A stretch of DNA of 62,636 nucleotides, counting the filler. It is 3 parts of 3 records of this genome, joined end to end, with 100 filler letters (N's around TTAATTAATTAA, not from the genome) between each part and the next. Parts side by side here need not be neighbours in the genome. Positions count along the whole stretch, not along the records: positions 1 to 29,769 come from SRR2962707_512; 2 more parts are not named here. One strand, given 5' to 3'. The position numbers and the translations under genes were made by a program. The notes under the pieces were generated by a model. It saw only the letters and a list, made by a program, of their open reading frames with translations. It made no database searches and was not told the DNA's origin. Each line of letters begins with the position of its first letter. The stretch's first letter is position 1. Below, in pieces: positions 544 through 58,643 of this stretch.

Positions 544-545
544 TC

Positions 546-1541: not shown

Positions 1542-1557
1542 ATTGAGGTAAAAACCT

Positions 1558-11569: not shown

Positions 11570-12469
11570 ATGTCTTTTTTTGAAATAATAGATCCCAGCT
11601 TCGCCCCCTTTGTATTGGGCAATGCGCCGGTAAAGCAACTGGCAACGGGATTTGATTGGGTTGAAGGACCGGTTTGGTTCGGCGATGCCAATTGCCTGTT
11701 GTTTTCTGATATTCCGAATAATCGGATTATGCGCTGGTCGCCCGACACAGGCATTTCTATTTACCGTGAGCCATCAAACTATTCCAATGGTCACACGCGC
11801 GACCGACAGGGACGCTTGGTTTCTTGCGAACATGGTACACGGCGGGTTACGCGCACAGAGCTAGACGGCTCGATAACCATCATTGCAGATCAATTTGAAG
11901 GCAAAAGCCTTAATTCGCCTAACGATGTGATTGTTAAATCAGACGGCACAATTTGGTTCTCCGACCCCCATTATGGCATCGCGTCCAACTATGAGGGATT
12001 TAAATCAGAGCAGGAATTGCCGTGTCAGGTTTACCGCGTTGATCCGTCTACGGGTAAAATTGATGCAATGGTCACCGATATGAACTGCCCCAATGGCTTG
12101 GCGTTTTCGCCCGATGAAACCAAACTCTATGTTGCAGATACGGGGCGCATGGGCAGCGACGATCAAAAACACATGAAAGTCTATGATATTGGCGCTGATG
12201 GCGCGCCAACCAATGGAAAAATTTTCCATGTTATTAATCCGGGCGCATCAGACGGTTTTCGCGTTGATACACTCGGGAATATATGGTCTTCGGCCGCTGA
12301 TGGAGTGCATTGCATCAATCCGGCAGGTCAATTGATAGGCAAAATATTAGTGCCTGAACTGGTTTCTAATGTGTGTTTTGGTGGACGTTCTAAACATCAG
12401 CTCTATATAACAGGGACAACAAGTATTTATAGGATTTCACTAAACGCCGCTGGCGTACAATACCCATGA
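11570..12469 (+). CDS. SMP-30/gluconolactonase family lactonase
   Basis: WVEGPVW, FSDIP, LNSPND, PNGLAFSPD and DGFRVD beta-propeller motifs. Confidence 0.9.
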   Translation: MSFFEIIDPSFAPFVLGNAPVKQLATGFDWVEGPVWFGDANCLLFSDIPNNRIMRWSPDTGISIYREPSNYSNGHTRDRQGRLVSCEHGTRRVTRTELDGSITIIADQFEGKSLNSPNDVIVKSDGTIWFSDPHYGIASNYEGFKSEQELPCQVYRVDPSTGKIDAMVTDMNCPNGLAFSPDETKLYVADTGRMGSDDQKHMKVYDIGADGAPTNGKIFHVINPGASDGFRVDTLGNIWSSAADGVHCINPAGQLIGKILVPELVSNVCFGGRSKHQLYITGTTSIYRISLNAAGVQYP

Positions 12470-13905
12470 AAGAGATGATCGTGACAAAACCTTCTGTTGG
12501 ACTAATCGGCCTTGGCACTATGGGCAGCAATTTGGCTCTAAACATTGCAGAGCACGGCTTCCCAATTTCTGTCTTTAACCGCACCGTAAAAACCACGCAT
12601 GAATTTGTGGCTGGCGCGGGTAAGTTGGCCGAAATGCTGGTGCCATCCGATACGCTTGAAGAATTTGTTGCGTCGATGGAAAGCCCGCGCAGCATCATTT
12701 TGATGGTGCCTGCAGGCGATGTGGTAGACGCACAAATTGCGGCGCTTCGTCCATTGCTCGATAAAGCAGACACAATCATTGATGCGGGCAATGCCAATTT
12801 TGAAGATTCCAATCGCCGCGCAAACGAAGCTAAAGAGGGTGGTTATCTGTTCCTCGGCGTTGGTGTTTCTGGCGGCGAAGATGGTGCGCGTTTCGGCCCC
12901 TCCATCATGGGCGGCGGTCCGCGCCAAGCGTGGGATAATGTTGCGCCGATCATGGAAGCCATTTCTGCGAAATATGAAGGCCAACCATGCGCCACTTGGA
13001 TGGGCGAGGGCGGCGCAGGCCACTTTGTTAAAATGGTTCATAACGGTATTGAATATGCAGATATGCAGATGATCGCAGAAGTCTACGGCATTTTGCGCGA
13101 TGGCATGGGTAAATCAGCGCCAGAGATTTCTGAAATCTTCGCAAAATGGAACGAAGGCCCATTGCAATCTTATCTAATCGAGATTTCTGCGGAAGTTTCC
13201 AAAGTGATTGACGAGAAAGCGGGCGTGCCGCTGCTTGATGTGATTTTGGATAAGGCGGGTCAAAAAGGCACGGGTCGCTGGACGGCGATTGAAGCGCAGC
13301 ATTTGGCAACGCCGGTAACGGCAATTGAAGCAGCTGTCGCAGGTCGTAATCTTTCTTCACGCCTTGATGAGCGCAAAGAGGGCGAAGTAATTTTCGGTGC
13401 TGCACCGCAAAAGCTGGTCGACGGTACAATCACAATTGACGATCTAGAAGCTGCATTGCTCGCTGGTAAAATCGCTTGTTATGCGCAAGGATTTGGCATG
13501 TTGGCTAAAGCGTCTTCAACCTATGAATGGGGCTTGCCTATGCCCGATGTGGCGCAGGTTTGGCGTGAAGGCTGTATCATCCGATCATCTATGCTCAACG
13601 ATATGGCAAGCGCCTTAGAAGCGCACCCAGGCCAGAACCTGATGTTTGCGCCGTTCTTTGCTAATCTGTTGAAAAAATCTCAGGGTGGTCTGCGCACAGT
13701 CGTTGGCCAAGGTGCATTGCATGGTCTGCCTGTGCCAGCTTTGGGTGCGGGTCTGTCTTATTTCGATATGATGCGCACAAGCCGTTCAACAGCTAATATG
13801 ATCCAAGCGCAGCGCGATTTCTTTGGTGCGCATACTTTTGAGCGCCTTGATGCAGAAGGTGCGTTCAACGGCCCGTGGAACGGCACAGCAACGCACAAGA
13901 AATAA
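12466..13905 (+). CDS. gnd: NADP-dependent 6-phosphogluconate dehydrogenase
   Basis: GLGTMG, GVSGGEDGA, VKMVHNGIEY, QKGTG, GCIIRS and QAQRDFFGAH. Confidence 0.95.
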   Translation: MKEMIVTKPSVGLIGLGTMGSNLALNIAEHGFPISVFNRTVKTTHEFVAGAGKLAEMLVPSDTLEEFVASMESPRSIILMVPAGDVVDAQIAALRPLLDKADTIIDAGNANFEDSNRRANEAKEGGYLFLGVGVSGGEDGARFGPSIMGGGPRQAWDNVAPIMEAISAKYEGQPCATWMGEGGAGHFVKMVHNGIEYADMQMIAEVYGILRDGMGKSAPEISEIFAKWNEGPLQSYLIEISAEVSKVIDEKAGVPLLDVILDKAGQKGTGRWTAIEAQHLATPVTAIEAAVAGRNLSSRLDERKEGEVIFGAAPQKLVDGTITIDDLEAALLAGKIACYAQGFGMLAKASSTYEWGLPMPDVAQVWREGCIIRSSMLNDMASALEAHPGQNLMFAPFFANLLKKSQGGLRTVVGQGALHGLPVPALGAGLSYFDMMRTSRSTANMIQAQRDFFGAHTFERLDAEGAFNGPWNGTATHKK

Positions 13906-14925
13906 TTAAATCGTATTGCCCGGTGCAAGCCGTGTGGGCGTGATGGTTACATCGCCCACCGCTTCACCGCGAAGGCGCGCAATGAGCGCGTCAGCGGCTG
14001 TCTTGCCCAATGCTTGCGTGCTGACGATTGTGGTCGTCAGGCGCTGCGGCAACACCGACGCAGCCTCCATGCCGCCCCAGCCAGCAATGCCCATATCATC
14101 GGGCACTTTCATGCCCTGTGATTGGCAATAGAAGATACCGCCAATGGCCATTGCATCATCCTGATAGTAGATAGCATCCAGATTTGGTGCGCGGTTAAGC
14201 AGGGTTTCAGTGCCATAAAAACCAGCGTAATACCCTGGTCTGTCATTGAGAATTTCGATTGCTTCAGCTTCAAGCGATGCTGATTTTAGACCGGCAAAAA
14301 AACCTTTTCGGCGAAGCGCGCCCGTGCTTTGTGCTTGCGCATCGGCGCCCACATAGCCAATCCGTTTATAGCCTTTGCTGGCGATAAAAAGTGCCATTTC
14401 ATGACCGCAGTCAAAATGATTAAACCCAATCGACATATCAATTGGGCTTGTGTTTAAATTCCAAATTTCAGCAACCGGAATACCATAGGCTTTGATCAAG
14501 TCGCGTGTCGTTTGCGTGTGCATAGGACCGCTTAATATCAAGCCAGCGGGTTGCCACGACAAAATGTTTTTAATCCACTTTTCTTCGGTCTGCGCTGAGT
14601 TTTCATGCGCGCCGATCATGGTTTGATAGCCCAATTTCGCCAAAGCTGAATTGATACTATCAAGCACCGGACCAAACAAACCGCTTGAAAGATAAGGCAC
14701 ATTCACGCCGATAATTGTGGATGTTTGATCAGAGCCAAAGGCGGCAGCGATCCGATTCGGCACATAGCCAAGGCGCTCAACTTGCTCGAGCACTTTCCGC
14801 CGCGTTGCTTCAGAAAACCCTGAAGCATCGCGTAAAACCCGCGATGCGGTCATTTTAGAAACGCCAGCGGCCTCAGCAACTTCTGCAAGGCTCACCTTTT
14901 GCGGTTTGTCGTTTTCAGTGTTCAT
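13906..14925 (-). CDS. LacI-family repressor, GntR(LacI)-like (second paralog)
   Basis: HTH VSLAEVAEAAGVSKMTASRVLR and LGYVPN; divergent from the ABC operon. Confidence 0.9.
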   Translation of the reverse strand: MNTENDKPQKVSLAEVAEAAGVSKMTASRVLRDASGFSEATRRKVLEQVERLGYVPNRIAAAFGSDQTSTIIGVNVPYLSSGLFGPVLDSINSALAKLGYQTMIGAHENSAQTEEKWIKNILSWQPAGLILSGPMHTQTTRDLIKAYGIPVAEIWNLNTSPIDMSIGFNHFDCGHEMALFIASKGYKRIGYVGADAQAQSTGALRRKGFFAGLKSASLEAEAIEILNDRPGYYAGFYGTETLLNRAPNLDAIYYQDDAMAIGGIFYCQSQGMKVPDDMGIAGWGGMEAASVLPQRLTTTIVSTQALGKTAADALIARLRGEAVGDVTITPTRLAPGNTI

Positions 14926-14946
14926 TGAAACATTCTAAAATTAGTT

Positions 14947-14962
14947 ACGTTACCGGTAACAT
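14947..14962. promoter_or_regulatory. LacI-type operator ACGTTACCGGTAACAT
   Basis: Core palindrome GTTACCGGTAAC just upstream of the putative -35. Confidence 0.75.
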
Positions 14963-14968
14963 TTGTCC

Positions 14969-14997
14969 TTGACTCTTTTGGAAAAAGCAACCTAATT
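14969..14997 (+). promoter_or_regulatory. Putative sigma70 promoter of the sugar ABC operon
   Basis: TTGACT-17 bp-CTAATT, flanked on both sides by operators. Confidence 0.55.
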
Positions 14998-15004
14998 GTG
15001 ATAT

Positions 15005-15020
15005 AGGTTACCGGTAACGT
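15005..15020. promoter_or_regulatory. LacI-type operator AGGTTACCGGTAACGT
   Basis: Second copy of the core GTTACCGGTAAC, just downstream of the putative -10. Confidence 0.75.
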
Positions 15021-15060
15021 TGTAAATCGTGTGTGTAACCGAGCTTTGGGAGGAGCGAAT

Positions 15061-16593
15061 ATGTCGTCTGCGCCGTCAGGTTTGTTTTTTGATAACATCG
15101 TCAAATCCTTCGGCGGCACTCAGGCGCTGCGCGGCGTATCCATGCATGTTAACCGAGGCGAAATCGTTGCGCTTTTGGGCGAAAACGGCGCTGGAAAATC
15201 CACACTCATTAAAGTACTCGGCGGTATTCATACGCCAGATGCCGGTGCAGTCATCATTGATGGTACGCGCTATACGCATAAGCCGGGAAGCGTAAATGAA
15301 AGCCAAAAAGTTGCGTTCATTCACCAAGATTTGGGCCTGATCGAATGGATGAGCGTTGCCGAAAATATGGCGCTCGCTCAAGGCTTCACCCGCCGCTTTG
15401 GCATGATCGACTGGAACGCAGCCAATGACCGCGCTGTTGAGGCGCTGGCAAAAGTTCGCTGTACCTTTGACCCGACAACACGCATTTCTGATCTAAGCCG
15501 GACAGAAAAATCACTTGTGGCGATTGCCCGTGCATTGGCCGTTGAATGCGATTTTCTTGTGCTTGATGAGCCAACGGCTTCTTTGCCTGCTGACGAAGTA
15601 GAGCGCCTGTTTGATGCACTTCACCCGCTGCGCGAAAAAGGCGTCGGTATGATTTATGTCTCTCACCGGTTGGACGAAATTTTCAAAATCGCTGACCGCG
15701 TGGCCGTGCTGCGCGATGGTATGATGGTCGGCATGCGCGATATTGAGCATACGACTCCAGAAGAATTGGTGAGCCTTATTGTTGGGCGTAAAACACGCGA
15801 TATCGCTCGCCCTCTGGTGAGCGAGGGCAAAGTCATGTTGTCGATCAAAAATCTTTATACAGGCGATGTTGGTCCTGTTGATATGACCATTCATCAAGGT
15901 GAAGTGGTTGGTCTTGTTGGTCTTCGCGGCGCAGGGCACGAAGAAATTGGGCGCTGTCTATTTGGCGTTGAGCCGCATGTTGGCGAAATCTTATTGGCTG
16001 GCGAAAAGCCTAACCTTTCATCACCACGCACAGCCATGAAATCTGGCATCGGCATGGTCGCGCGAGACCGCGTGGTTGAATCCATTACACCGTCGCTCAC
16101 CATCCGTGAGAACGCCTATATGAACCCAGAAGCGATAGGTCGCTCGGCGCTGTCCTTTATGACCGGCGCAAACGAAGACACCGCCGCCGCTAAAATGGGC
16201 GCGGAACTTGGCCTGTCTCCCAATGATCCGACTTTGGCCATTGAGGCGCTTTCAGGTGGCAATCAGCAGAAGGTTGTCGTTGGTCGATGGCTTGCGACAA
16301 ACCGCAAACTCTTGATCGCAGAAGATCCAACCGCTGGCGTTGATGTCGGCGCTAAGGCAGAAATCTACGCGCTGCTTTTTGAAGCTTTATCACGCGGCAT
16401 GGGCGTTCTCGTCGTATCAACCGATTTTGAGGAAGTCGCCAATATTTGCCACCGCGCCATTGTGTTTAGCCGCGGCAAAGTCGTCGGCGAATTGGAAGGC
16501 GTGGGCCTATCCACAGAAACACTTATTCAAGCCGCATCAGCTGGCGAAATAACAATGAATACACGGAAAGAAGACGCACATGCAGTCAATTGA
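15061..16593 (+). CDS. Sugar ABC transporter ATP-binding protein (CUT2/RbsA type)
   Basis: GENGAGKST, LDEPT, VSHRL and LSGGNQQKV; two ABC domains; GGAGGAG RBS before ATG 15061. Confidence 0.92.
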   Translation: MSSAPSGLFFDNIVKSFGGTQALRGVSMHVNRGEIVALLGENGAGKSTLIKVLGGIHTPDAGAVIIDGTRYTHKPGSVNESQKVAFIHQDLGLIEWMSVAENMALAQGFTRRFGMIDWNAANDRAVEALAKVRCTFDPTTRISDLSRTEKSLVAIARALAVECDFLVLDEPTASLPADEVERLFDALHPLREKGVGMIYVSHRLDEIFKIADRVAVLRDGMMVGMRDIEHTTPEELVSLIVGRKTRDIARPLVSEGKVMLSIKNLYTGDVGPVDMTIHQGEVVGLVGLRGAGHEEIGRCLFGVEPHVGEILLAGEKPNLSSPRTAMKSGIGMVARDRVVESITPSLTIRENAYMNPEAIGRSALSFMTGANEDTAAAKMGAELGLSPNDPTLAIEALSGGNQQKVVVGRWLATNRKLLIAEDPTAGVDVGAKAEIYALLFEALSRGMGVLVVSTDFEEVANICHRAIVFSRGKVVGELEGVGLSTETLIQAASAGEITMNTRKEDAHAVN

Positions 16594-17602
16594 ATCAAAT
16601 GCGTTAGAGCCAACAAAAGCTGAGTTAAAAGGCTTGTCGCGCGCGCAAAAACTCATTCGCCTCGCGCCTACTTATGGCTTGGTTATTTTGACCGTATTCC
16701 TTTTGATCCTGTTCTCAATTTTGCTGCCGGATACCTTTCCGACGATGCTCAATCTTCGCGCGATTATTTCTGACAAAGCAATCATCGCTATTTTGAGCTT
16801 GGCTGCAATGATCCCGATGGCCGCGGGTCGCATCGATTTGACCGTTGGTTATGGCATCGTGCTTTGGCATATTTTGGCGATATCCCTTCAAACACTCTAC
16901 GGTATTCCTTGGCCTGTAGCGGTGATGATCGTTCTCGTGTTAGGCGCGATTGTCGGCTTTTTGAACGGCCTATTGGTGGAAATCGCCAAGATCGATTCAT
17001 TCATCGCAACACTCGGCACGGGCACTGTTCTTTATGCTTTGGCTTTGGCTCATACCGGTGGCCGCCAAATGGTTGGCGCATTGCCGCAGGGCTTTTACAA
17101 CATCAACGGCACCTTTGTTTTCGGTCTGCCAATCACTGGATTTTACGTTCTTGCCATTATGATCGTGCTTTGGGTCGTGCTCGAATATACGCCCATTGGC
17201 CGTTATCTATATTCAATTGGCGCCAATCAACGCGCCGCAGAATTGAACGGTATTCCAACGCGCAAATATGTCATCGGTGCATTCGTAACATCCGGGCTTA
17301 TGACTGCTTTAGCGGGCGTGCTTTTGGCATCTAAACTGCGCATCGGACAAGCCAGTGTGGGCCTTGAATTTCTATTGCCTGCGCTTGTCGGTGCGTTCCT
17401 TGGATCAACAACAATCAAACCTGGCCGCGTCAATGTGTGGGGCACGATGATCGGCGTCGCAATTCTAGCGATCGGTATTTCAGGTATTCAGCAATTTGGC
17501 GGCTCATTTTGGGTCGAGCCAATGTTCAACGGTGTGACGCTACTCGTAGCGATCGGTATCGCCGGATATGCACAGCGCCGCAAAGGCGCTGCGAAAAAAT
17601 AG
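16580..17602 (+). CDS. Sugar ABC transporter permease (RbsC type)
   Basis: Hydrophobic segments; IDLTVG, FIATLG and GRYLYSIGAN..AAELNGI motifs. Confidence 0.9.
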   Translation: MQSIESNALEPTKAELKGLSRAQKLIRLAPTYGLVILTVFLLILFSILLPDTFPTMLNLRAIISDKAIIAILSLAAMIPMAAGRIDLTVGYGIVLWHILAISLQTLYGIPWPVAVMIVLVLGAIVGFLNGLLVEIAKIDSFIATLGTGTVLYALALAHTGGRQMVGALPQGFYNINGTFVFGLPITGFYVLAIMIVLWVVLEYTPIGRYLYSIGANQRAAELNGIPTRKYVIGAFVTSGLMTALAGVLLASKLRIGQASVGLEFLLPALVGAFLGSTTIKPGRVNVWGTMIGVAILAIGISGIQQFGGSFWVEPMFNGVTLLVAIGIAGYAQRRKGAAKK

Positions 17603-17631
17603 AGACTGCATCAGCAAAACGGGAGGAAACC

Positions 17632-18684
17632 ATGCTGAAACGTACTTTTATAAAAACCCTGCTCGCAGGGTCAGTGATGATGGGTCTAGGCCTATCAGCT
17701 GCGAATGCTCAAGAGGCTTTTGACGGCCCGACAAGCGGACCAAAAGCGGCCGAAGGCAAGACAATTGTTGTGCTTGCTGCAGACCTAAAAAACGGCGGCA
17801 TCCTTGGCGTTACCAATGGTGTTGAAGAAGCGGCGGCCAAAATCGGTTGGAACGTGCGCGTTCTTGACGGTGCAGGTTCCGTGCAAGGCCGTACAGGCGC
17901 TTTCGGTCAGGCCATGGCGCTGAAACCAGATGGCATCGTCATCAACGGTTTTGATGCGCTTGAGCAACAAGCTGCGCTAGAAGCCGTTGCTGCTGCAAAA
18001 ATTCCAATGGTGTCATGGCACTCAGGTCCAAAAATTGGTTGTGATGCACCGGGCGGTATCTTTGCAAACGTGTCGACAGACGCAATGCAAGTTTCTGAAA
18101 CCGCGGCTGAATGGGCAATGGAAGATGGCGGCGATAAAGTTGGCGCTGTTATTTTCACAGATTCTACATACCAAATCGCGATTGATAAAGCTGACCGCAT
18201 TAAAGAAACAATCGAGAAAATGGGCGGTACAGTTCTTGAATATGTAGACACGCCAATCGCTGATACATCAACACGTATGGGTCCGTTGACGACTTCGCTT
18301 CTGCAGAAATATGGTGCCAAGTGGACACATGCTTTGGCGATCAACGACCTGTATTTTGACTTCATGGGCCCAGCTTTAGCTGCCGCCGGTATCGCAGGCG
18401 ATGGTGCACCACTTGCCGGTTCGGCTGGTGATGGTTCTGAAGCTGCATTCCAGCGTATTCGCACAGCACAATATCAGGCAATTACAGTTGCTGAGCCGCT
18501 TAACCTTCAAGGTTGGCAGCTTGTTGATGAGCTAAACCGTGCCGTTTCTGGCGAGGCTTGTTCTGGCTATATCACAGCGCCAGCACTCGTGACGAAAGAA
18601 GGCTTGGAAGCATCAGGCGATAGCAACCAGTTCGATCCACAGAATGGCTATCGCGAAGCTTACTCTGCGATCTGGGGCAAATAG
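17632..18684 (+). CDS. Sugar ABC transporter periplasmic binding protein
   Basis: GGGAGGA RBS then signal peptide MLKRTFIKTLL...ANA; type I periplasmic-binding pattern (KPDGIVING, AIND). Confidence 0.88.
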   Translation: MLKRTFIKTLLAGSVMMGLGLSAANAQEAFDGPTSGPKAAEGKTIVVLAADLKNGGILGVTNGVEEAAAKIGWNVRVLDGAGSVQGRTGAFGQAMALKPDGIVINGFDALEQQAALEAVAAAKIPMVSWHSGPKIGCDAPGGIFANVSTDAMQVSETAAEWAMEDGGDKVGAVIFTDSTYQIAIDKADRIKETIEKMGGTVLEYVDTPIADTSTRMGPLTTSLLQKYGAKWTHALAINDLYFDFMGPALAAAGIAGDGAPLAGSAGDGSEAAFQRIRTAQYQAITVAEPLNLQGWQLVDELNRAVSGEACSGYITAPALVTKEGLEASGDSNQFDPQNGYREAYSAIWGK

Positions 18685-18712: not shown

Positions 18713-18736
18713 AAAAAGGGCCGCGAGGCCCTTTTT
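18713..18736. terminator. Bidirectional rho-independent terminator
   Basis: AAAAAGGGCC-GCGA-GGCCCTTTTT between the convergent ABC and TRAP operons. Confidence 0.85.
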
Positions 18737-18760: not shown

Positions 18761-20056
18761 TTAACCCGGATAGCCAAACATACGCGGGAGGAACAGCACG
18801 ATGCTTGGGAAGAATATCAACATCAAAAGCGCGACAACCAAAATGAATAAAAATGGCCAAATTTCGCGAATAATTTCACCAAGTGGAATACGGGTCACCG
18901 CGTTAATGACGAATAACAGGATACCGTAAGGCGGTGTGATAAGGCCGATCATACAGTTGATAACTGCAACAACACCGAAATGCACAAGGTCAATGCCAAG
19001 CTCACGGCAGGTTGGAATAAACAGCGGCAAGATCACCAAAATGATCGTCGTCGCATCCAAAACACAGCCCAGCAGCAAGAGCAGTAGATTAACGCCCAGC
19101 AAGAACGCGAGGGGCGAAACATCAAGGCCCACCAGTGCCTGTGCAACCATATTGGGTATGTTCTCAGAAGCGACGATGTAGTTGAGGATCAACGCACCAC
19201 CGATAACAAGACCAACAGATGCGGAGCTACGGGCGCTTTCAAGGAGAATTCTATAAAGTGCACTAAAGCTAACAGCGCGGTAAAATAGTGTCGATAATAA
19301 CAACGCATAGGCAGCCGCAACCGCTGCAGCTTCTGTGGGTGTCGTCACGCCGCCATAGATGCCGTAAAGCAAAATTGCAGGCATCAATAGGGCAGGGAAC
19401 GCATTGGCTGTTACACGCGGTAATTCGCGAAACGGCACAGGTTCTTCGGTAGCAAAGTTGCGCTTGTGCGAAAGATAGGTGTTTGTCGCCATAAGAACTG
19501 CGCCCATCAATAGCCCTGGAATGATACCGCCCAAGAATAGATAGCCGATCGAAGAGTTGGAGATCAGCGCATATAAAACCATCGGAATTGAAGGCGGGAT
19601 AACCGGTCCAATCGTTGCAGAGGCAGCCGTGATCGCGGCTGCATATCCACGCGGATAGCGGCCATCTTTGACCATCATCTCGATGATAATTTTACCGATA
19701 CCCGCAGCGTCTGCCACAGCCGAACCAGACATGCCGGAAAAGATGAGCGATGCAACAATATTCACATGGCCCAAGCCACCGCGAAAACGACCAACAGCCG
19801 CCACGCAAAATGCGAGCAGTCTTTCAGAGATCGTTCCAGCATTCATAATGCCAGCAGCGACGATAAAAAGAGGAACCGCGAGCAAAACAAAGCTTGTGTA
19901 AAGTCCTTGCAAAATTTGCTCACCAGCAAGGCCAATATCTTGGCCGCCGATAGCAAGATAGGCAATGGCGCCCACTAAAATAGAATAGGCAATGGGCGTG
20001 CCGATTGCAGCCAATACGAAAATCGACAGGAGGCAGATGCTAAGTGCTAAGCTCAT
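18761..20056 (-). CDS. dctM: TRAP transporter large permease
   Basis: LLAVPLF, FSGMSGSAVADAA, IGPVIPPSIPM, TPTEAAA and GLITPPYG. Confidence 0.93.
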   Translation of the reverse strand: MSLALSICLLSIFVLAAIGTPIAYSILVGAIAYLAIGGQDIGLAGEQILQGLYTSFVLLAVPLFIVAAGIMNAGTISERLLAFCVAAVGRFRGGLGHVNIVASLIFSGMSGSAVADAAGIGKIIIEMMVKDGRYPRGYAAAITAASATIGPVIPPSIPMVLYALISNSSIGYLFLGGIIPGLLMGAVLMATNTYLSHKRNFATEEPVPFRELPRVTANAFPALLMPAILLYGIYGGVTTPTEAAAVAAAYALLLSTLFYRAVSFSALYRILLESARSSASVGLVIGGALILNYIVASENIPNMVAQALVGLDVSPLAFLLGVNLLLLLLGCVLDATTIILVILPLFIPTCRELGIDLVHFGVVAVINCMIGLITPPYGILLFVINAVTRIPLGEIIREIWPFLFILVVALLMLIFFPSIVLFLPRMFGYPG

Positions 20057-20553
20057 TGTCCTACCTCTTCATCATTCATTTGGTCTGCATCGAAGTCATC
20101 GCGGTTGCGCCAAATGTGGATAATGCGCCATAGGTAACGCAAAATAATTGCGATCAAGAATAGGGCGTAAACGGAAAACACCGCTCGCATGGGAATATGC
20201 AGCGTCGGGCTTTTTTTGATCTTCATAAAGTCGATGTAGTCCCATGTCGGTAGCAACGACACGGCTAATGCGATCGCAATCGCGAGCGCGGAAATTGTCG
20301 CCAACACTTGGCGCAACTTGTTCGGTGCCATCCAATACAGGATGTCAAAACTCACATGTCCCTGCTCTTTAACGATAAATGCACTGCCCCAAAAAATGAG
20401 CCAAATCCATAGCGTTAGGCACAGTTCAATTGTCCACCCCAACGGATTGTTCAGGATGTAGCGTGAAAAAATTTGTAGGACAAATGTAAGGAACATGGCG
20501 GCAAGTATTGCCGCCGCCACGCCCTCAGCCCCGCGTTGAAGAAACTTCTTCAT
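20053..20553 (-). CDS. dctQ: TRAP transporter small permease
   Basis: Four TM segments; QIFSRY..N.PLGWTIEL and GHVSFD. Confidence 0.9.
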   Translation of the reverse strand: MKKFLQRGAEGVAAAILAAMFLTFVLQIFSRYILNNPLGWTIELCLTLWIWLIFWGSAFIVKEQGHVSFDILYWMAPNKLRQVLATISALAIAIALAVSLLPTWDYIDFMKIKKSPTLHIPMRAVFSVYALFLIAIILRYLWRIIHIWRNRDDFDADQMNDEEVGQ

Positions 20554-20577
20554 AAGGAGACCCTTTGTTTGGGAAGA

Positions 20578-21582
20578 TTAAAGGCTGTTGATCTTATCAA
20601 GAACGCCTGCAGGCCAATCTTTAGCAAGGTCAGATTCCAAATACATGTTCTGCACTTGTGTGCGGAATGCATTTAGATCCGGCTCATAAACATCAAGGCC
20701 CTGTTCTTCTAGGAATGACACAAGATCTTGCTCTTTTTTCAATTGAGCTTCACGGCCACTTGTTGCAGCTGCATCAGCAGCTGCTTGCAATGTCGCTTGC
20801 TGATCAGCATCAAGCGAGTCCCAAACTTTTTTAGATATCGCAACATAGTTCAAATCAACCAAGTGAGAAGTCAGAACAATCTGCTTAGTCACTTCGTAGA
20901 ATTTTGCGTCCACAACAGTTGGTAGCGGGTTGTCTTGACCATCAACAGCACCGGTTTGAAGCGCTGTATAAACCTCAGTAAAGGCCATCGGTGTTGGGTT
21001 TGCGCCAAGTGCTTTGCCAAGGAACTGCCACGCATCGCTACCAGGCATACGCAAATTAACGCCGGCCAAATCTGCAGGCGTTGTCACTGTGCGATCTGCT
21101 TTAGATTCGCGCAAGTTTACCTGACGGCGACCAAGATACATCACAGACAAAAGCTTTACGCCGAGTTCGTCTTCAACTTTTTTCTTAAATGGGTCCATCA
21201 AGGCATCGTTAAAAACCGCCAATTGGTGCGCGGCATCGCGGTGCACATAGCCAGCAGTAAAAATCGAGAATTCTGGGAAAAGAACTGCAAGCTCTTGGGC
21301 TGACGCGATAGACATTTCCAAGTTGCCACGGGCAATGGCTTCTAGTTCTGTGCCCTGCTTGAACAATGATGCGTTATAATGGGGTTCATATGTTGCGAAC
21401 TCGGCGACAGCTGGTGCAAAAACAGTGGCCAAAGCAATTGCGCGTTGGTCTGTATCTGTCGCAGGTGTAGACATGCGCAATGTAATTTTATCAGCTGCAA
21501 ATGCAGATGAAACGCCGCAAACAGCGATCGCTGTTGTCAGAGCCAGTGCCATAAATGAACGGCGGTTGAAAGTGTTAGTCAT
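20578..21582 (-). CDS. dctP: TRAP solute-binding protein, SiaP/YiaO-like sugar-acid type
   Basis: Tat-like signal NRRSFM; YLGRRQ, LRMP and PTPMAFTEVYTALQTGAVDGQDNPL. Confidence 0.9.
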   Translation of the reverse strand: MTNTFNRRSFMALALTTAIAVCGVSSAFAADKITLRMSTPATDTDQRAIALATVFAPAVAEFATYEPHYNASLFKQGTELEAIARGNLEMSIASAQELAVLFPEFSIFTAGYVHRDAAHQLAVFNDALMDPFKKKVEDELGVKLLSVMYLGRRQVNLRESKADRTVTTPADLAGVNLRMPGSDAWQFLGKALGANPTPMAFTEVYTALQTGAVDGQDNPLPTVVDAKFYEVTKQIVLTSHLVDLNYVAISKKVWDSLDADQQATLQAAADAAATSGREAQLKKEQDLVSFLEEQGLDVYEPDLNAFRTQVQNMYLESDLAKDWPAGVLDKINSL

Positions 21583-21656
21583 AGTCGTTTCCTCCTCAGG
21601 TGTAGTCTTGAAGTTATGTCTTCAAGTTTAGCTTAGTTCGTTTAGTCTCTTCCTGC

Positions 21657-22316
21657 TTAGAGCCCCAATGCGCGTTGTTTGGCGCTTGTAATATGGGCGT
21701 CTAATGCTGAAATTGTTGCTGCTACATCCCGTGCGGCGAGTGCTGAAATGATCTGTAGATGCTCCTCCAGAACAGATACAACCAATTCAGGTAGCATACG
21801 TGTATCGGCGTTTCTAATAAGCCTGATTTTTATCGAATTTACGCGGTAAGTATTTGAAATAAGTTTGTTTCCAAGCGCGTCAATCACATGGTCATGAAAT
21901 GCCCAGTCTACGCGCTGTGCGTGTGCCAGCAATTCAGGTGTGACGCCTTTATGCGCCGCTTCAAGGATTTCTGTGTGCTCGTCATAAAATTGTGTGATCG
22001 TGCTTTGATCAGCAGTTTTACAAAAATGAGAGATCGCCTCACGCTCTAGAAAGTGGCGCAACTGGAAAGCGTTGCGCACAAGTTCCAAATCAATACTGGT
22101 GATCTGCACGCCTTTTTTCGGCACTGTCGTGATTAGGCCATCAGCTTCAAGGCGCGGGATCATTTCGCGAATGGCACCAAGCGGCAGTCCAGTCAGATTG
22201 ACCAGTTCTCGTTGAGAAACGATTTGCCCTGGCATGAGGTCTTGTGCCAGCAGCTTTTCAGTAAAGCTGGCATAAGCCATATCACGCAAGGGTATCATTT
22301 TTGTGGAGACGATCAT
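21657..22316 (-). CDS. GntR/FadR-family (FCD) transcriptional regulator
   Basis: N-terminal wHTH (PGQIVSQREL...IRE...LEADGLI) and FCD domain (DWAFH, EEHLQI). Confidence 0.88.
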   Translation of the reverse strand: MIVSTKMIPLRDMAYASFTEKLLAQDLMPGQIVSQRELVNLTGLPLGAIREMIPRLEADGLITTVPKKGVQITSIDLELVRNAFQLRHFLEREAISHFCKTADQSTITQFYDEHTEILEAAHKGVTPELLAHAQRVDWAFHDHVIDALGNKLISNTYRVNSIKIRLIRNADTRMLPELVVSVLEEHLQIISALAARDVAATISALDAHITSAKQRALGL

Positions 22317-22322
22317 CTTTCT

Positions 22323-23201
22323 TTACTCCGCTGAATTACCGTTCATCGAAGCTAGCAGGCTAAATAATTCAGGCAAGGCGCTTTTCGGCGTTTCTTCAAA
22401 TGGAAGACGCACGCGGTTCCAGCTGTCATCGCCAGATACGTGAGCCACCAAAGATTTGACAGCAGGCGTAACCGGCAGCGAGACTACCGCGTTGACCAGC
22501 GCGAAAAGCGCTTCGTCATCTTTGCCGCTCGCAATCATGTCTTTAAGGCGATTAGGGCAGATGTTAGCCATGCCGCTGATAGCACCAGCGCAGCCAAGCG
22601 GACCGGCTTTTGCAAGATGGCGTTCATCGCCAACCAGAACCGCAAGATCAGGATTTGTCAGCAAGGCCGCTGTATTTTCCCAATTGCCAGAACTGTCTTT
22701 CAAACCGACAACTTGGGCTGGGAAATCTTTTTGCAATCCATGAACGAGCGCTGGCGTCAATGGCACCATTGTCACTTGTGGAATATGGTACAAAATGACC
22801 TGCATACCCTCAGGTAGGCCAGCTAAAACATCAATAAACCAATTGCGCAATGCATTGTCGCTGACACCCTTAAAGTAGAATGGCGGCGGCAATAGAATTT
22901 TCCGAGAACCGTGATCAAACGCGGCCTTGGCCTGTTCAATCGCATCGGCGATCGCATTGCCGTAGATTGCGACTGTTACACGCGCCATTTCAAAGCCATG
23001 TTCTTTAAAATAGGCGAGAGCGGCGATGCGTTCTGATTGGGTCAATGATGCGCCTTCACCAGTGGTGCCAAACAATGTCACACCATCGGCACCAATCTCC
23101 AAAGCATGGTTTGCGTGACCAAGCATAAGAGAATGATTCAATTTGTTGTTCTCATCAAACGGTGTGACGAGGGCAGTCGAAATTCCAAATTCAATGCGCA
23201 T
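22323..23201 (-). CDS. DHDPS/N-acetylneuraminate-lyase family aldolase (pyruvate Schiff-base type)
   Basis: ALVTPF, GTTGEG, LYHIPQ (catalytic Tyr) and LKDSSG (Schiff-base Lys). Confidence 0.88.
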   Translation of the reverse strand: MRIEFGISTALVTPFDENNKLNHSLMLGHANHALEIGADGVTLFGTTGEGASLTQSERIAALAYFKEHGFEMARVTVAIYGNAIADAIEQAKAAFDHGSRKILLPPPFYFKGVSDNALRNWFIDVLAGLPEGMQVILYHIPQVTMVPLTPALVHGLQKDFPAQVVGLKDSSGNWENTAALLTNPDLAVLVGDERHLAKAGPLGCAGAISGMANICPNRLKDMIASGKDDEALFALVNAVVSLPVTPAVKSLVAHVSGDDSWNRVRLPFEETPKSALPELFSLLASMNGNSAE

Positions 23202-23236
23202 TGCGTTCCCACTTAAATTAAGCTCATTGATTTTCC

Positions 23237-23291
23237 AGTAACATGTTACTAAACTTATTACAAGCTAGTGACATGCTTACTAACATGTTAG
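23237..23291. promoter_or_regulatory. Three TAACATGTTA-type palindromic operators in the divergent promoter
   Basis: AGTAACATGTTACT (23237-23250), degenerate AGTGACATGCTTACT (23267-23281) and CTAACATGTTAG (23280-23291). Confidence 0.72.
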
Positions 23292-23327
23292 ATGCTCGCT
23301 TAGAAACGAAAGCGGCTGGGAGAAAAT

Positions 23328-24932
23328 ATGAATCAGAAAATATTTATTGGCGTGGATGTCGGCACGGGAAGCGCACGTGCGGGCATTTTTGATCATGAAG
23401 GCACGCAGCTAGCCAGCGCTTCTGAAGCGATTTCAATGTGGCGTCCGCAGGCCGACTATTGTGAGCAAAGTTCAGCCGACATTTGGCGCGCCGTTGTAAA
23501 ATCTGTGCGGGCAGCTGTCGCAAAGTCCAGCGTGGACAAAGCCCACATTGCAGGCATTGGTTTTGATGCAACCTGTTCGATGGTTATCGAAGGCGCAGAT
23601 GCCGAGCCATTACCAGCCAGCCCAAATGGCGATCCTGATCACAATGTTATTGTATGGATGGATCACCGCGCGACACGCGAGGCAGAAGAAATCACTGCAA
23701 CAGGGCACAGTGTTTTAGAGTCCACAGGCGGTATCATCTCACCTGAAATGCAAACGCCGAAATTATTGTGGCTGTCACGCTTTAACGCTGAAACGTACAA
23801 GTCCGCGACGCAGTTTTTCGATTTGCCAGATTGGTTGACCTATCGCGCTACTGGATCAAACACACGGTCACTATGCTCCGTTGTTTGTAAGTGGACATAT
23901 CGCGGGCAAAGCGGTTTGGCCGGTGAGGGGTGGGACAAAAGCTATTTTGAACAAATTGGCCTTGGCGATTTAATTGACAATAATTTCGCAAAATTAGGCT
24001 CCACAATTGCCGCACCTGGAACCGCAATCGGTTGCTTAAGCAGTCAAGCAGCAGATGAATTGGGACTGCCTGAAAGCGTTGTCGTTGGTGCATCTCTCAT
24101 TGATGCCCACGCCGGTGCTCTGGCCACGCTCGAAGTGAGCGCGCAAGGGCAAGGCGCAAATCGTTTGGCGCTTATCGCGGGTACATCCGCTTGTCATATA
24201 GCCTTGTCTGAAAACGCAACAATGGTGCCCGGCATTTGGGGACCATATTTTGGTGCGGTACTGCCCGATCTTTGGGCAACAGAAGCAGGCCAGTCCATGG
24301 CAGGCGCTGCGCTTGATGTTGTTCTAAATCGACATGCTGCACGCGCCGAATTAGGCGATAATCCGCACAAAGCGATTGCCGATCATATTAACAAAATGGC
24401 GGGCGACAATACGCCAGCATATCTGACCAAGGATCGCCACAGCATTGCAGATTTCCATGGCAATCGCGCACCCTTAGCTGATCCCACACGAAAAGCTGTC
24501 GACATTGGATTGGATAGCAGTGTTGGGCTGGATGATTTGGCAATAAATTATTTGTCGGTACTGCAGGCCCTTGCCTATGGCAGCCGCCATATCATCGAGG
24601 ATATGCAAGCAAAAGGAATTCCAGTCGATAGTATCGTGGTCAGCGGCGGCTTGGTGGAAAATCAACTATACCTGCAAACCCACGCAGATGCGGTTGGCTG
24701 CCCTGTGCTTATTCCAGAGTGTAAAGAGCCAGTTCTGCTGGGCGCTGCAATGCTGGGCGCTTGCGCCGCTAACTTAAAGCCTGATTTGCGCAGCACCGCG
24801 GCTGCTATGTGCGGCGTTGCCAAAGTGTTGCAGCCAAACAGTGATCTTAAAAAATATCACGATGCAAAATACGCTGTTTTCCAAAAACTAATTCAAGACT
24901 TCGCTGCCTATCGCAGCATTATGAACAACTAA
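23328..24932 (+). CDS. FGGY-family pentulose kinase, D-ribulokinase subtype
   Basis: [59 protein letters not shown] and DFHGNRAP, as in RbtK/FGGY-type D-ribulokinases. Confidence 0.85.
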
Positions 24933-24948
24933 ATTTAAGAGGCCAAAA

Positions 24949-26565
24949 ATGACAAAATCGATCTACCTATTTGCAAGCGGTGATAGCCGCGAAAGCGCGA
25001 ACACTACATGCTGGCCTGCGCAGGCGGCAATGGAAGAAAAGCTGAGCGCTGAGTTTGGCCGCATAGGTGCGAAAATTATCCGCGCTCATCCATTTGATAC
25101 GACGCGCGGCCATGGTTTTTTATCGAGCCAGCGCGCTGGCATGAATGCATTTGCGGCCATTGATCCAAATGCGCCTGTCATCGTGGCTGTTTCCTGTTGG
25201 CAATATTCGCACCATGTGCTTGCAGGCCTCTGCAGCCACAAAGGCCCAATCTTAACCGTTGCCAATTGGTCAGGCCAGTGGCCCGGCCTCGTTGGCATGC
25301 TCAATCTAAACGGCAGTTTGACGAAAGCGGGCGTTGAATTTTCCACTATCTGGAGCGAAGATTTTACCGATGATTTTTTCCGCGATGCCATCGCTAGCTG
25401 GCTGAAAGACGGAAAAGTAGAACATGATAGATCGCATATTGAGCCGTTAGCTGCGAGCAAACTGCCTTCTGATATAAAGCAAATGGCTGATGATCTTGCC
25501 ACTGCCCTTCAATCTGAAAAGTCGATTATGGGCGTGTTCGACGAAGGCTGCATGGGCATGTTTAATGCCATTATTCCTGATGCACTTCTCATGCGCCTTG
25601 GCGTTTTCAAAGAACGCCTGTCCCAGTCGGCACTTTATCACGCAACACTGCAGGTGCCTGAAGAAGAGGGCAAAGAAGTCTATGATTGGCTTATTGCCAA
25701 AGGTCTCAAATTCCATTTGGGCAAAGATCCTGCGACAGAATTAACACTTGAACAGGTTATTTTGCAGTGTCGTTTGTATATTGCAGCCGTGCGCCTTGCT
25801 GATGATTTTGATTGCGAGACAATTGGCATTCAATATCAACAAGGCTTGAAAGATTTGCTACCCGCGTCTGACCTTGTTGAAGGCACGCTGAATAACGCAG
25901 ATCGCCCCGATGTGAAACGCGCAGACGGCTCTATCATTCGCCAAGGTCGGCCCGTCACGCATTTTAACGAGGTTGATGAATGTGCAGGTTTAGATGCACT
26001 TCTCATTGCGCGCACGCACACCCTATTGGGTGAGCCATTAGAGACAACATTGCATGACATAAGATGGGGCGATGACGATCAGTCCAGCGCGAAGAATGGG
26101 TTCGTCTGGGTTTTCGAAATCTCTGGTGCCGCGCCGCCAGCACATCATAAGGATGGATGGGCAGGCAGTGAAAGTTTGCGTCAACCAGCTATGTATTTCC
26201 CTTCTGGCGGCGGCACATTGTGCGGTGATGCCCGCGAAGGCGAGATTATTTGGTCTCGTATCTTCGTGTCTGGCGATAAACTGCACATGCATATCGGCCG
26301 CGGCCGTGCAATCGAACTTGAGCGAGCCGAAGCGCTGCGCCGCCGCAATGCGACGACACCTGAATGGCCGATCATGCATGCGCAACTATATGGCGTATCG
26401 CGCGACCAGTTGATGGGGCAGCACCAGGCAAACCATATACAGGTGGTCTATGCGTCAAGCGCTGAGGCGGCAAATAAGGCGGCAAGGGTTAGGGCAGCAT
26501 TTGCACAAAACCTCGGCATTGAGGTGTCGATTGTTGGCGGTGAGGAAAGCCAATTGCTTGCATAA
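24949..26565 (+). CDS. L-fucose/D-arabinose isomerase-like protein (divergent FucI fold)
   Basis: Putative metal ligands in HFNEVD, LHDIRW and QANHIQ, plus TPEWP, parallel the E/D/H ligands of FucI. Confidence 0.7.
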
Positions 26566-26696: not shown

Positions 26697-27737
26697 ATGA
26701 CCAATCGTAGAACATTTATGGGCGTGCTGGGCGGCGCTGCACTTGTTGCGTTGACGGCAACAAGTGCATTGGCTCAAGAATTCACTTTCAAACTTCATCA
26801 ATTTTTGCCAGCAAACGCTGCTGTGCCTGAACTGGTGCTCGATGTATGGGCCGATAAAATTGAAGCCGATTCCGGCGGCCGCATTAAAATCGACCGCTAT
26901 CCGTCAATGCAGCTCGGTGGACGCCCGCAAGAGCTTTATGATCAAGCCGCCGATGGCGTTGCCGATATTATCTATACTGCGGTTGGCTATACGCCTGGCC
27001 GCTTTCCATCCACTGAAGTGTTTGAACTGCCCTTTATGGTCGCCAATCCGCGTGCTGCGTCATATGCGTTTTGGAAAATGTACGAAGCCCATATGAAGGA
27101 CGAATTTAAAGATACGCATGTTTTGTTCACATGGGTTCATGGACCTGGTCTGTTTCACACCGCCGAGCCAGTTGAAAAACCGGCAGACCTAAATGGAATG
27201 AAAATTCGCGGCGGTTCCCGCCTCGTCAATCAGCTGCTTGAAGCGGCAGGCGCAACACCTGTTGGTATGCCGGTTCCTTCTGTTTCAGAGGCTATATCAA
27301 AGGGTGTAATTGATGGTGCTACGCTTCCTTGGGAAGTGACAACATCAGTTAAGGTGCCTGAATTGGTGCATAACCACACTGAGTTTGAAGGTGCGGGCAT
27401 TTATACGCTCACTTTCGTTCTGACGATGAACAACAATTCCTACAACAGCCTGCCTGATGATCTCCAAGCCGTAATCGATAAAAATTCTGGCTTGGATTTC
27501 TCAGTCTTTGCGGGCGGAACGCAGGCAGGCGCCGATGCTCCCGCGCGCCAGATCGCTGTTGATCTGGGCAATAACATCATCACAATCAGCGAAGAAAAAG
27601 CCAAAACAGAATGGGCCCCGCTTGTAGACCCAATCTATGCAACATGGGTCGCTGATATGAAAACCAAAGGCATCGATGGACAGGCTTTGATCGACGAAGC
27701 CCACGCTTTGATGACTGAGTATACAAACAAACAATAA
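26697..27737 (+). CDS. Stand-alone TRAP solute-binding protein
   Basis: Tat-like NRRTFM signal; YPSMQLGG, YTPGRFP..EVFELPF, DLNGMKIR and KGVIDG. Confidence 0.85.
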   Translation: MTNRRTFMGVLGGAALVALTATSALAQEFTFKLHQFLPANAAVPELVLDVWADKIEADSGGRIKIDRYPSMQLGGRPQELYDQAADGVADIIYTAVGYTPGRFPSTEVFELPFMVANPRAASYAFWKMYEAHMKDEFKDTHVLFTWVHGPGLFHTAEPVEKPADLNGMKIRGGSRLVNQLLEAAGATPVGMPVPSVSEAISKGVIDGATLPWEVTTSVKVPELVHNHTEFEGAGIYTLTFVLTMNNNSYNSLPDDLQAVIDKNSGLDFSVFAGGTQAGADAPARQIAVDLGNNIITISEEKAKTEWAPLVDPIYATWVADMKTKGIDGQALIDEAHALMTEYTNKQ

Positions 27738-27789: not shown

Positions 27790-27820
27790 AAAGGCCAGCA
27801 TTCGTGCTGGTCTTTTTTTT
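27790..27820 (+). terminator. Rho-independent terminator
   Basis: AAAGGCCAGCA-TTCG-TGCTGGTCTTT followed by a T run. Confidence 0.85.
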
Positions 27821-52741: not shown

Positions 52742-52841
52742 NNNNNNNNNNNNNNNNNNNNNNNNNNNNNNNNNNNNNNNNNNNNTTAATTAATTAANNN
52801 NNNNNNNNNNNNNNNNNNNNNNNNNNNNNNNNNNNNNNNNN
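52742..52841. other. Artificial contig linker
   Basis: 44 N + TTAATTAATTAA + 44 N. Confidence 0.97.
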
Positions 52842-52842
52842 C

Positions 52843-56245: not shown

Positions 56246-56319
56246 GCTTCCCCTTCCCTGACCGGCGCAGACTGAAGGCAGTGTTCCATGCCATCGATAA
56301 CCAAAAACAGGGAATCACC

Positions 56320-57462: not shown

Positions 57463-57476
57463 GTGGAGGAATAACC

Positions 57477-58016: not shown

Positions 58017-58022
58017 TACGCT

Positions 58023-58628: not shown

Positions 58629-58643
58629 GCCAGGAGTCCGACC

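Follow-up and report, generated by a model that had tools for sequence, protein, structure and literature searches.

A divergent TRAP transporter, aldolase, isomerase and pentulose kinase locus as a candidate regulon for Kdo catabolism in a marine-type alphaproteobacterium

Introduction

Which compound is taken up by a tripartite ATP-independent periplasmic (TRAP) transporter whose operon also encodes a pyruvate aldolase, and does a kinase and isomerase gene pair transcribed from the other side of the same spacer complete its breakdown? These questions are raised by a locus in a 62.6-kb stretch of DNA, here called the window (the whole stretch that was analyzed), the source of which is a marine-type alphaproteobacterium. 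The proteins closest to those of the window come from Rhodobacterales and Hyphomicrobiales, and a 14.8-kb public contig encodes a binding protein (P0121) and an isomerase (P0001) that are each 91% identical to their counterparts in the window, DctP1 and the isomerase. A preliminary description, made from the bare sequence, had read the locus as a scavenging route for 3-deoxy-D-manno-octulosonate (Kdo), an eight-carbon acid sugar that almost every Gram-negative bacterium produces and that is also among the main constituents of plant rhamnogalacturonan II (RG-II) and some algal scales. We know of no genes yet assigned to the breakdown of Kdo.

We lean toward this reading, according to which the regulon would import Kdo and convert it to pyruvate and D-arabinose, the D-arabinose to D-ribulose, and the D-ribulose to D-ribulose 5-phosphate (Ru5P). 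It is favored because, given a pentulose kinase and an isomerase with the L-fucose/D-arabinose isomerase fold, it is the simplest chemistry that makes use of every gene. In the proposed scheme, DctP1, exported by the twin-arginine translocation (Tat) system, would capture the sugar acid through carboxylate-binding arginines for import by DctQM. An enzyme of the dihydrodipicolinate synthase/N-acetylneuraminate lyase (DHDPS/NAL) family would then form a Schiff base through K168 and split the acid into pyruvate and an aldopentose, which would be D-arabinose if the substrate is Kdo. The isomerase, which has the FucI fold, would turn D-arabinose into D-ribulose, and the pentulose kinase would phosphorylate the latter to Ru5P, which enters the pentose phosphate pathway. 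A regulator of the GntR/FCD family would bind two TAACATGTTA palindromes in the spacer, and the substrate or an intermediate would cause the release of both arms. The gene families, the conserved catalytic and binding residues, the isomerase fold, the recurring operator box, and the fused operons of other genomes are observations, whereas we infer every substrate in this scheme, and the effector likewise.

Two Divergent Arms Share a Spacer with Operator-Like Palindromes

The genes named in the preliminary description coincide exactly with entries of our open reading frame (ORF) list, and their families were confirmed by Pfam and NCBIfam (table 1). Transcription on the minus strand runs in the order aldolase, GntR/FCD regulator, DctP1, DctQ, and DctM; the DctP, DctQ, and DctM genes are contiguous and codirectional, and their Pfam families (PF03480, PF04290, and PF06808) all score above the cut-offs. 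The aldolase and kinase genes are divergent, with a spacer of 126 bp between them at 23202-23327. Terminator-like hairpins lie just 3' of DctM (18713-18736) and after DctP2 (27790-27815); such sites are not enriched over shuffled sequences, and the match counts of the promoter and terminator scans (12 vs. 10.9 and 15 vs. 13.1) show no enrichment over the shuffles. The whole locus is found inside a segment of about 30 kb with a G+C content of 47-52%, which ends at a junction flanked on either side by truncated genes.

Reading of the spacer sequence revealed two perfect palindromes with a TAACATGTTA core, located 42 bp apart, for which an inverted-repeat scan had returned no pairs in the spacer. 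If one mismatch is allowed, these remain the only two TAACATGTTA sites in the window. The regulator encoded next to the aldolase combines an N-terminal GntR winged helix with a C-terminal FCD domain, and its orthologues (60-69% identity) adjoin the aldolase in 13 loci and precede the kinase and isomerase genes in the loci L177, L179, and L181. Nine of the 13 loci with the orthologous regulator have the box directly upstream of the aldolase, two more have it at two mismatches, and of the remaining two loci, one is cut and the other is without it. The aldolase-GntR-kinase-isomerase operons of L177 and L179 and the GntR-kinase-isomerase operon of L181 are likewise preceded by the box. A second architecture, in which DctPQM is accompanied by a divergent paralogous GntR and by a DHDPS member of very different sequence, carries the box in the spacer between GntR and DctP in 19 of 21 loci. 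Only two of the 46 other loci with a DctP1 orthologue contain it, not adjoining DctP there; three occurrences were counted in 843 kb of metagenomic loci with the isomerase, and none in the six kinase-isomerase loci that lack a window-type regulator. This distribution suggests that the TAACATGTTA boxes are the operator of the GntR/FCD regulator, predicted to be common to both arms.

Table 1. Features of the locus in window coordinates, followed by kinase genes of comparable loci in the coordinates of those loci
Feature	Position	Strand	Support
DctM, TRAP large permease, 431 aa	18761..20056	-	PF06808 363.6 bits; TIGR00786 407 vs. cut-off 268
DctQ, TRAP small permease, 166 aa	20053..20553	-	PF04290 74.2 bits; 4-base overlap with DctM start
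DctP1, TRAP solute-binding protein, twin-arginine (RR) signal, RD1_0742/4PF6 type, SiaP-like	20578..21582	-	PF03480 192.7 bits; PDB 4pf6
GntR/FCD-family regulator	21657..22316	-	PF00392 and PF07729
DHDPS/NAL-family class I pyruvate aldolase, candidate Kdo aldolase	22323..23201	-	PF00701 130.8 bits
Operator-like palindrome 1, AGTAACATGTTACT	23237..23250; core TAACATGTTA 23239-23248		Sequence reading
Operator-like palindrome 2, CTAACATGTTAG	23280..23291; core 23281-23290		38 bp 5' of kinase ATG
FGGY pentulose kinase, D-ribulokinase-type subfamily	23328..24932	+	FGGY_N and FGGY_C; TIGR01315 620.8 bits
Distant FucI-fold aldose-ketose isomerase, 538 aa, candidate D-arabinose isomerase	24949..26565	+	AlphaFold model; Pfam matches below cut-off
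DctP2, second DctP-family binding protein, RR signal, without own permease genes	26697..27737	+	PF03480 129.6 bits; PDB 7nr2
PfkB kinase, aldolase-GntR-TRAP locus L055, no isomerase in genome	7371-8237		
PfkB kinase, aldolase-GntR-TRAP locus L057, no isomerase in genome	7435-8277		
PfkB kinase, aldolase-GntR-TRAP locus L073, no isomerase in genome	7410-8402		

The Kinase and the Isomerase

The kinase had been described as acting on pentuloses, and this is borne out by its membership in the NCBIfam subfamily TIGR01315 ("FGGY family pentulose kinase"; cut-off 408.7 bits), which it matches from residue 6 to 529 of 534. We take this subfamily to be the one that holds the D-ribulokinases. Other identities tried for the kinase were discarded: ribulokinases of the AraB type (242-282 bits, with cut-offs of 428-583), fuculokinase (40 bits, cut-off 471), and xylulokinase (below the XylB equivalog cut-off of NCBIfam).

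The isomerase is recognized in Pfam by matches just under the cut-offs (Fucose_iso_C, 27.4 vs. 29.3; Fucose_iso_N1, 26.6 vs. 28), and searches of NCBIfam and, at an E value of 1 or better, of the PDB sequences returned no match. Its AlphaFold model was built on 35 homologues and has a predicted local distance difference test score (pLDDT) of 92.6. The model superimposes on the L-fucose isomerase of E. coli (1fui) with a Z score of 38.2 and a root-mean-square deviation (rmsd) of 2.5 A over 340 residues, and on the D-arabinose isomerase of B. pallidus (3a9r) with a Z score of 37.4; L-arabinose isomerases reach Z scores of 29-32, and the next unrelated chain is found at about 10. The fold shared with FucI extends in the model over residues 170-537, corresponding to the catalytic N2 and C domains, and all 41 Foldseek matches at an E value of 0.001 or lower are FucI, D-arabinose isomerase, or AraA. 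The alignment of the family contains invariant E, D, and H columns. Because the sequence matches are below threshold or missing and the match of the fold is strong, the isomerase is, as judged from its model, a member of a distant, separate family with the L-fucose/D-arabinose isomerase fold, in line with its earlier description as FucI-like. This family comprises at least 8000 proteins, and some of the relatives are named "fucose isomerase" in databases. In 10 of the 13 isomerase-bearing genomes of our Rhodobacteraceae sample (401 genomes), the isomerase has a kinase orthologue (45-52% identity) as its neighbor, and the pair is thus a stable module.

The sugar delivered to this module bears on an alternative in which the mechanism is the same and the acid is another: a different ulosonic or 2-keto-3-deoxy acid, such as a modified Kdo of algal scales or rhizobial K-antigens, 3-deoxy-D-glycero-D-galacto-nonulosonic acid (KDN), or 3-deoxy-heptulosonate, would release whatever aldose the FucI-fold isomerase and the pentulose kinase accept. 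Chain length and stereochemistry are not fixed by the sequence, and proteins of the SiaP type bind several nonulosonic acids, KDN among them (PDB titles 2v4c and 2wyk). The handling of the aldose also appears to be variable: three of seven flank-scanned aldolase-GntR-TRAP loci (L055, L057, and L073; table 1) have a ribokinase-like PfkB kinase divergent from the aldolase instead of the isomerase and the FGGY kinase, and this kinase may provide an alternative phosphorylation of the released sugar. The same box-regulated TRAP system is moreover found with a very divergent DHDPS member (17-19% identity) in the 21 loci of the second architecture. On the other hand, a TIGR01315 kinase next to a FucI-fold isomerase fits best with a pentose as product. 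Among common natural ulosonic acids, Kdo is, as far as we know, the one that gives a pentose, and it is also the presumed ligand of 4PF6. We regard a different acid as unlikely, though as a serious contender, and retain Kdo as the preferred substrate.

The Aldolase

The aldolase matches PF00701 above the cut-off of 22.1 bits, and its best match in the PDB is 3b4u (E value 5.7e-67). K168 and Y138, presumably the Schiff-base lysine and the catalytic tyrosine known from this family, are invariant in all 18 aligned relatives, and the protein also contains the GTTGE motif. Neither of two named identities was retained for the protein, DapA (TIGR00674, 122.5 bits; cut-off 206.15) or NanA (NF003164, 62.4 with a cut-off of 281; TIGR00683, 54.8 with a cut-off of 382). 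The segment after Y138 reads YHIPQVT and contains no arginine; we assume that an arginine after the catalytic tyrosine is typical of DapA.

As the DHDPS family also includes dehydratases and decarboxylases, the protein could instead be an enzyme of this kind, similar to KdgD, that acts on a different acid sugar, and models for 5-dehydro-4-deoxyglucarate dehydratase do give weak matches. Their scores (53.9 and 44.1 bits) are, however, far below the cut-offs (278 and 374) and also below the scores for DapA, 2-keto-3-deoxygluconate (KDG) aldolase, and NanA, and in L181 the corresponding place is taken by a pyruvate aldolase of the HpcH/HpaI family. This makes a dehydratase or decarboxylase highly improbable, and we continue to treat the protein as a candidate Kdo aldolase.

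An aldolase activity on Kdo, EC 4.1.2.23, was reportedly described by Ghalambor and Heath in 1966. As EC 4.1.2.23 is known as an activity alone, there is no reference sequence with which the window aldolase could be compared. An engineered NAL of E. coli is presented as an L-KDO aldolase in the part of PMC4016182 available, indicating that the NAL fold can accept Kdo. In the available portions of two further sources, EC 4.1.2.23 is listed among the orphan enzymes tabulated in 2007 (PMC1940265), and a Kdo aldolase is invoked without a gene (PMC12199768, 2025). No report of Kdo catabolic genes was found in the literature searched, which did not cover subscription papers and supplements.

The Binding Protein DctP1

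The closest solved relative of DctP1 is by far 4pf6, the TRAP binding protein RD1_0742 of Roseobacter denitrificans (Enzyme Function Initiative target 510239). It is found by PDB sequence search with an E value of 3.5e-157, followed by SiaP entries at about 8e-41, and the identity amounts to 75-76% over 300-304 residues. The model of DctP1 (pLDDT 77.8) superimposes on 4pf6 with a Z score of 35.0 and an rmsd of 2.6 A (300 aligned residues, 75% identity); the corresponding values for SiaP are about 30% identity and a Z score of about 27. We take the ligand in 4PF6 to be Kdo, with which the proposed pathway would agree, and the study tied to RD1_0742/4PF6 is said to be that of Vetting et al. in 2015 (Biochemistry 54:909). 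In the portion of PMC12076931 available, Kdo is not among the ligands given for Vetting, and KDO is named solely for a biosynthesis benchmark in that of PMC5788505. The 120 best of 4138 close relatives of DctP1 in public data (more than 4000) did not include RD1_0742, and in the literature searched this protein turned up solely in a sequence list of a bioRxiv preprint.

The preliminary description had pointed to a set of Arg, Arg, Phe, and Asn residues shared with SiaP. These residues are present in DctP1 within LGRRQV, NLRMPG, PMAFTE, and GQDNPL; in the HMMER alignment, R153, R178, F201, and N218 pair with their counterparts in SiaP (2cex), the R178 of NLRMPG with the Arg of KLRVP, and all four are invariant in the 29 aligned orthologues. 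A conserved Arg of TRAP binding proteins is described in the available part of PMC4646407 as pairing with the carboxylate of the substrate. Several members of the DctP1 family (P0129, P0132, P0133, P0139, and P0225) carry the NCBI-sourced name "sialic acid TRAP transporter substrate-binding protein SiaP" at about 30% identity to SiaP, and this naming is probably an over-annotation.

Coupling of the Two Arms

A link between the arms is found in L015, L177, and L179, where genes for the aldolase (47-48% identity), the GntR regulator (61-62%), the kinase (48-51%), and the isomerase (64-66%) are codirectional and arranged head to tail; the three genomes also give the three best aldolase scores in the Rhodobacteraceae sample. 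L181 encodes no DHDPS aldolase and has the HpcH/HpaI pyruvate aldolase beside the TRAP genes and the GntR-kinase-isomerase genes, and a different DHDPS member directly precedes isomerase and kinase in L186; aldolase replacements that are not homologous would thus keep the same pathway logic. DHDPS-family ORFs adjoin the isomerase also in the metagenome loci L100, L109, and L144. The TRAP genes of the genomes with a fused aldolase-kinase-isomerase operon belong only to a reduced module of a type otherwise seen with shikimate dehydrogenase, which adjoins the fused operon in L015 and L177. A DctP1-type binding protein (69-78% identity) is encoded in all five of the searched genomes with the isomerase cluster.

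The sharing of the operator-bearing spacer, together with the four-gene codirectional operons of three genomes, supports the view that the kinase/isomerase arm and the aldolase/TRAP arm would operate as one functional unit. Of the earlier claim that both arms form one route, this is the part that holds; a general coconservation of kinase and isomerase with the aldolase/TRAP arm, also expected, was not found, as detailed below.

Evidence Weighing against the Kdo Assignment

Two sets of observations weigh against Kdo as the substrate and against a fixed association of the arms. The first concerns the cooccurrence of the arms. A set of 80 loci with DctP1 orthologues (69-89% identity) contains only one, L015, with both kinase and isomerase, and the isomerase was detected in none of 11 genomes with the more common aldolase-GntR-DctPQM locus by a query that did detect G001. 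Among the 401 Rhodobacteraceae genomes, 13 encode the isomerase, 27 the aldolase, and three both (hypergeometric p = 0.05), so that 24 of the 27 aldolase-bearing genomes are without the isomerase. Across 80 metagenome loci with the isomerase, an FGGY gene lies within 3 kb in eight and a DHDPS gene in three, the contexts being mostly others. A class-wide search recovered the isomerase in four of 301 genomes. The coupling of the two arms is facultative.

It could be argued from these numbers that the spacer is shared by two independent modules, one of TRAP transporter and aldolase for an acid sugar and one of isomerase and kinase for free D-arabinose or an L-fucose-like sugar. Kinase-isomerase pairs are indeed found with ABC (ATP-binding cassette) or major facilitator superfamily (MFS) sugar transporters and without an aldolase or window-type regulator (L180, L183, L187, and L096), and most aldolase-TRAP loci lack the kinase-isomerase pair. 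Such independence is at odds with the codirectional aldolase-GntR-kinase-isomerase genes of three genomes, with the box in front of GntR-kinase-isomerase in L181, and with the position of both window arms on either side of the same two boxes, and we consider it quite improbable. A single Kdo route with facultative coupling of its arms is the explanation that we prefer.

The second set of observations concerns the binding protein. To compare gene contexts, the loci of the orthologue set were classified except for L050, in which the match covers only 273 residues. Of the resulting 79 loci, 33 show a context of genes for shikimate dehydrogenase, GFO/IDH/MocA, and often QuiC-like proteins, and six a reduced version of it; 21 belong to the second DHDPS architecture, 13 have a window-type aldolase, one has another aldolase, and five have none of these. 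Binding proteins that are 69-80% identical to DctP1 are spread over three contexts. These contexts cluster on a quick tree of the binding proteins (none of 500 shuffles was as low), in which DctP1 is placed in a mixed clade and groups with proteins from shikimate contexts. The contexts are told apart by no more than four alignment columns, which correspond to residues 74, 77, 78, and 212 of DctP1, and as DctP1 has the shikimate-context residue at all four, there is no sequence sign of a Kdo-specific pocket. Furthermore, 4pf6 is no closer to DctP1 than the 80 genomic orthologues, which themselves occur in three contexts, and the presumed Kdo in 4pf6, if copurified from E. coli, could be a surrogate ligand. 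Since equally similar binding proteins occupy clusters with shikimate dehydrogenase and QuiC-like genes, we propose a substrate here rather than assign one.

In L001, L047, and about 37 further loci, DctP1-like proteins (69-80% identity) are encoded within clusters for shikimate dehydrogenase, GFO/IDH/MocA, and QuiC-like proteins (a TIM barrel combined with a domain similar to hydroxyphenylpyruvate dioxygenase, HPPD). This suggests that they serve the TRAP uptake of quinate or shikimate, or else a second ulosonic-acid route; the respective proteins of L047 score 502 bits with the QuiC model (cut-off 1200) and 324 bits with the model for a shikimate dehydrogenase subfamily (cut-off 235). L005, L037, and 19 more loci have a minimal architecture that combines a divergent GntR and DctPQM with a DHDPS member that is only 17-19% identical to the window aldolase. 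Two DctP1-type paralogues in different contexts are present in one genome (L005 and L009).

The shikimate-type clusters give rise to a further reading, in which the TRAP system imports a hydroaromatic acid such as quinate, shikimate, or 3-dehydroshikimate, some other substrate is processed by the aldolase, kinase, and isomerase, and the Kdo of the crystal is a surrogate. The 39 of 79 classified loci with such contexts, the model scores of L047, and the grouping and four discriminating residues of DctP1 all speak in its favor. Within the window, however, none of the 63 ORFs was identified by Pfam as shikimate dehydrogenase, QuiC-like, or GFO, and the TRAP genes form one operon with the aldolase and its regulator. 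The shikimate-type loci are also without the TAACATGTTA box (the two occurrences among the 46 other loci are at unrelated positions), and the window-type aldolase adjoins reduced shikimate-type TRAP modules in L015, L177, and L225. We therefore judge a purely hydroaromatic transporter to be improbable. Quinate is a carbocyclic analogue of the pyranose ring of a 3-deoxy-ulosonate, and because of this resemblance the DctP1 family may bind both acids, or else the crystal ligand may be a surrogate. For the locus of the window, import of Kdo is still the reading toward which we incline.

Neighboring Genes and Other Features of the Window

A second binding protein, DctP2, which the preliminary description had not included, is encoded directly downstream of the isomerase. 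Its best match in the PDB is 7nr2 (E value 6.5e-152), followed by 5im2, 5iga, and 7nsw, all of which we take to be binders of aromatic acids. The gene is not conserved beside the cluster: a close homologue is found only in L054 (52% identity) among the 80 loci, three more loci have homologues of 25-26% identity, and none is present in L177-L189. The membership of DctP2 in the system is uncertain, and it might share DctQM.

The locus is adjoined on the side of the TRAP operon (11570-18684) by genes for a gluconolactonase-like protein (SGL), a 6-phosphogluconate dehydrogenase, a LacI-family regulator (best model Pseudomonas GntR, 240 bits, below the cut-off), and a sugar ABC transporter. Further upstream, genes resembling those of inositol catabolism (7-3230) encode the C-terminal part of an IolD-like thiamine pyrophosphate (TPP) enzyme, cut by the start of the window, as well as a PfkB kinase, a KduI/IolB protein, and a class II aldolase of the fructose-bisphosphate (FBP) type.

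Between 29416 and 30625, a gene for a family-3 binding protein stops after 133 aa (positions 1-83 of the 132 in the Pfam profile). About 100 bp past it, an ORF begins partway through MnmG/GidA, of which it covers profile positions 264-390 of 391, and the G+C content rises from about 0.47 to about 0.59. An assembly join or a rearrangement seems to have produced this pattern, and given the abruptness of the junction, the proposed Kdo locus is confined to the first segment of lower G+C content. Partial genes also occur at 51358-53616, where the ORF for phosphoenolpyruvate carboxykinase (PEPCK) covers profile positions 269-464 of 465 and that for arginyl-tRNA synthetase includes no more than a short stretch of the catalytic domain; additional joins or frameshifts may account for them. 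The high-G+C segment contains a mau cluster (56281-59168) with the heavy chain of methylamine dehydrogenase, MauE, and the light chain.

Significance and Comparison with Known Systems

Seen as a cluster for ulosonic-acid catabolism, the locus contributes two things that are new, a well-defined operator box and a candidate for the gene of an orphan enzyme. A bolder proposition is that the TAACATGTTA-box regulon holds the missing gene for EC 4.1.2.23 and represents the first genetically assigned route of Kdo catabolism, with interchangeable back ends (the FucI-fold isomerase with a D-ribulokinase, or the ribokinase-like kinase elsewhere); we find this plausible, but stop just short of leaning toward it. 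If true, a Kdo regulon would be widespread among marine and rhizosphere Alphaproteobacteria that recycle the Kdo of lipopolysaccharide, capsules, and algal scales, and the DctP1 family members in clusters with shikimate dehydrogenase and QuiC-like genes would have a dual specificity for Kdo and hydroaromatic acids or belong to a second, oxidative ulosonic-acid route. The locus offers a compact, testable set of one binding protein, aldolase, isomerase, kinase, and regulator with a defined box, and the TAACATGTTA box is a handle with which the regulon can be located in other genomes. Confirmation would allow the correction of database names (SiaP for the binding protein, "fucose isomerase" for relatives of the isomerase) and give a clearer view of how marine heterotrophs recycle the carbon of cell envelopes.

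Among known systems, the nan/sia clusters (SiaPQM, NanA, and NanR) resemble the locus in their SiaP-like TRAP transporter, a Schiff-base lyase of the NAL/DHDPS type that releases pyruvate, a GntR regulator of the FCD type, and enzymes that process the sugar. They differ in that the window aldolase stays below the NanA cut-offs and in the genes that accompany it: as the preliminary description had maintained, the 63 window ORFs include, according to Pfam, no ROK kinase (NanK), NanE, or NagA, and no class II aldolase of the FucA type. The FucI-fold isomerase and pentulose kinase that are encoded instead point to a pentose rather than N-acetylmannosamine (ManNAc) as the released sugar. The succession of a FucI-fold isomerase and an FGGY kinase recalls the FucI/FucK/FucA route of E. 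coli, from which the locus is set apart by the missing FucA-type aldolase, by a kinase that is not a fuculokinase, and by an isomerase that is only 16-17% identical to FucI and about 50 residues shorter. The comparison enzyme for the kinase is the D-ribulokinase of the RbtK type from Klebsiella. For the aldolase it is the Kdo aldolase EC 4.1.2.23, whose reaction, the cleavage of Kdo to pyruvate and D-arabinose, is the one that we propose for the enzyme of the window.

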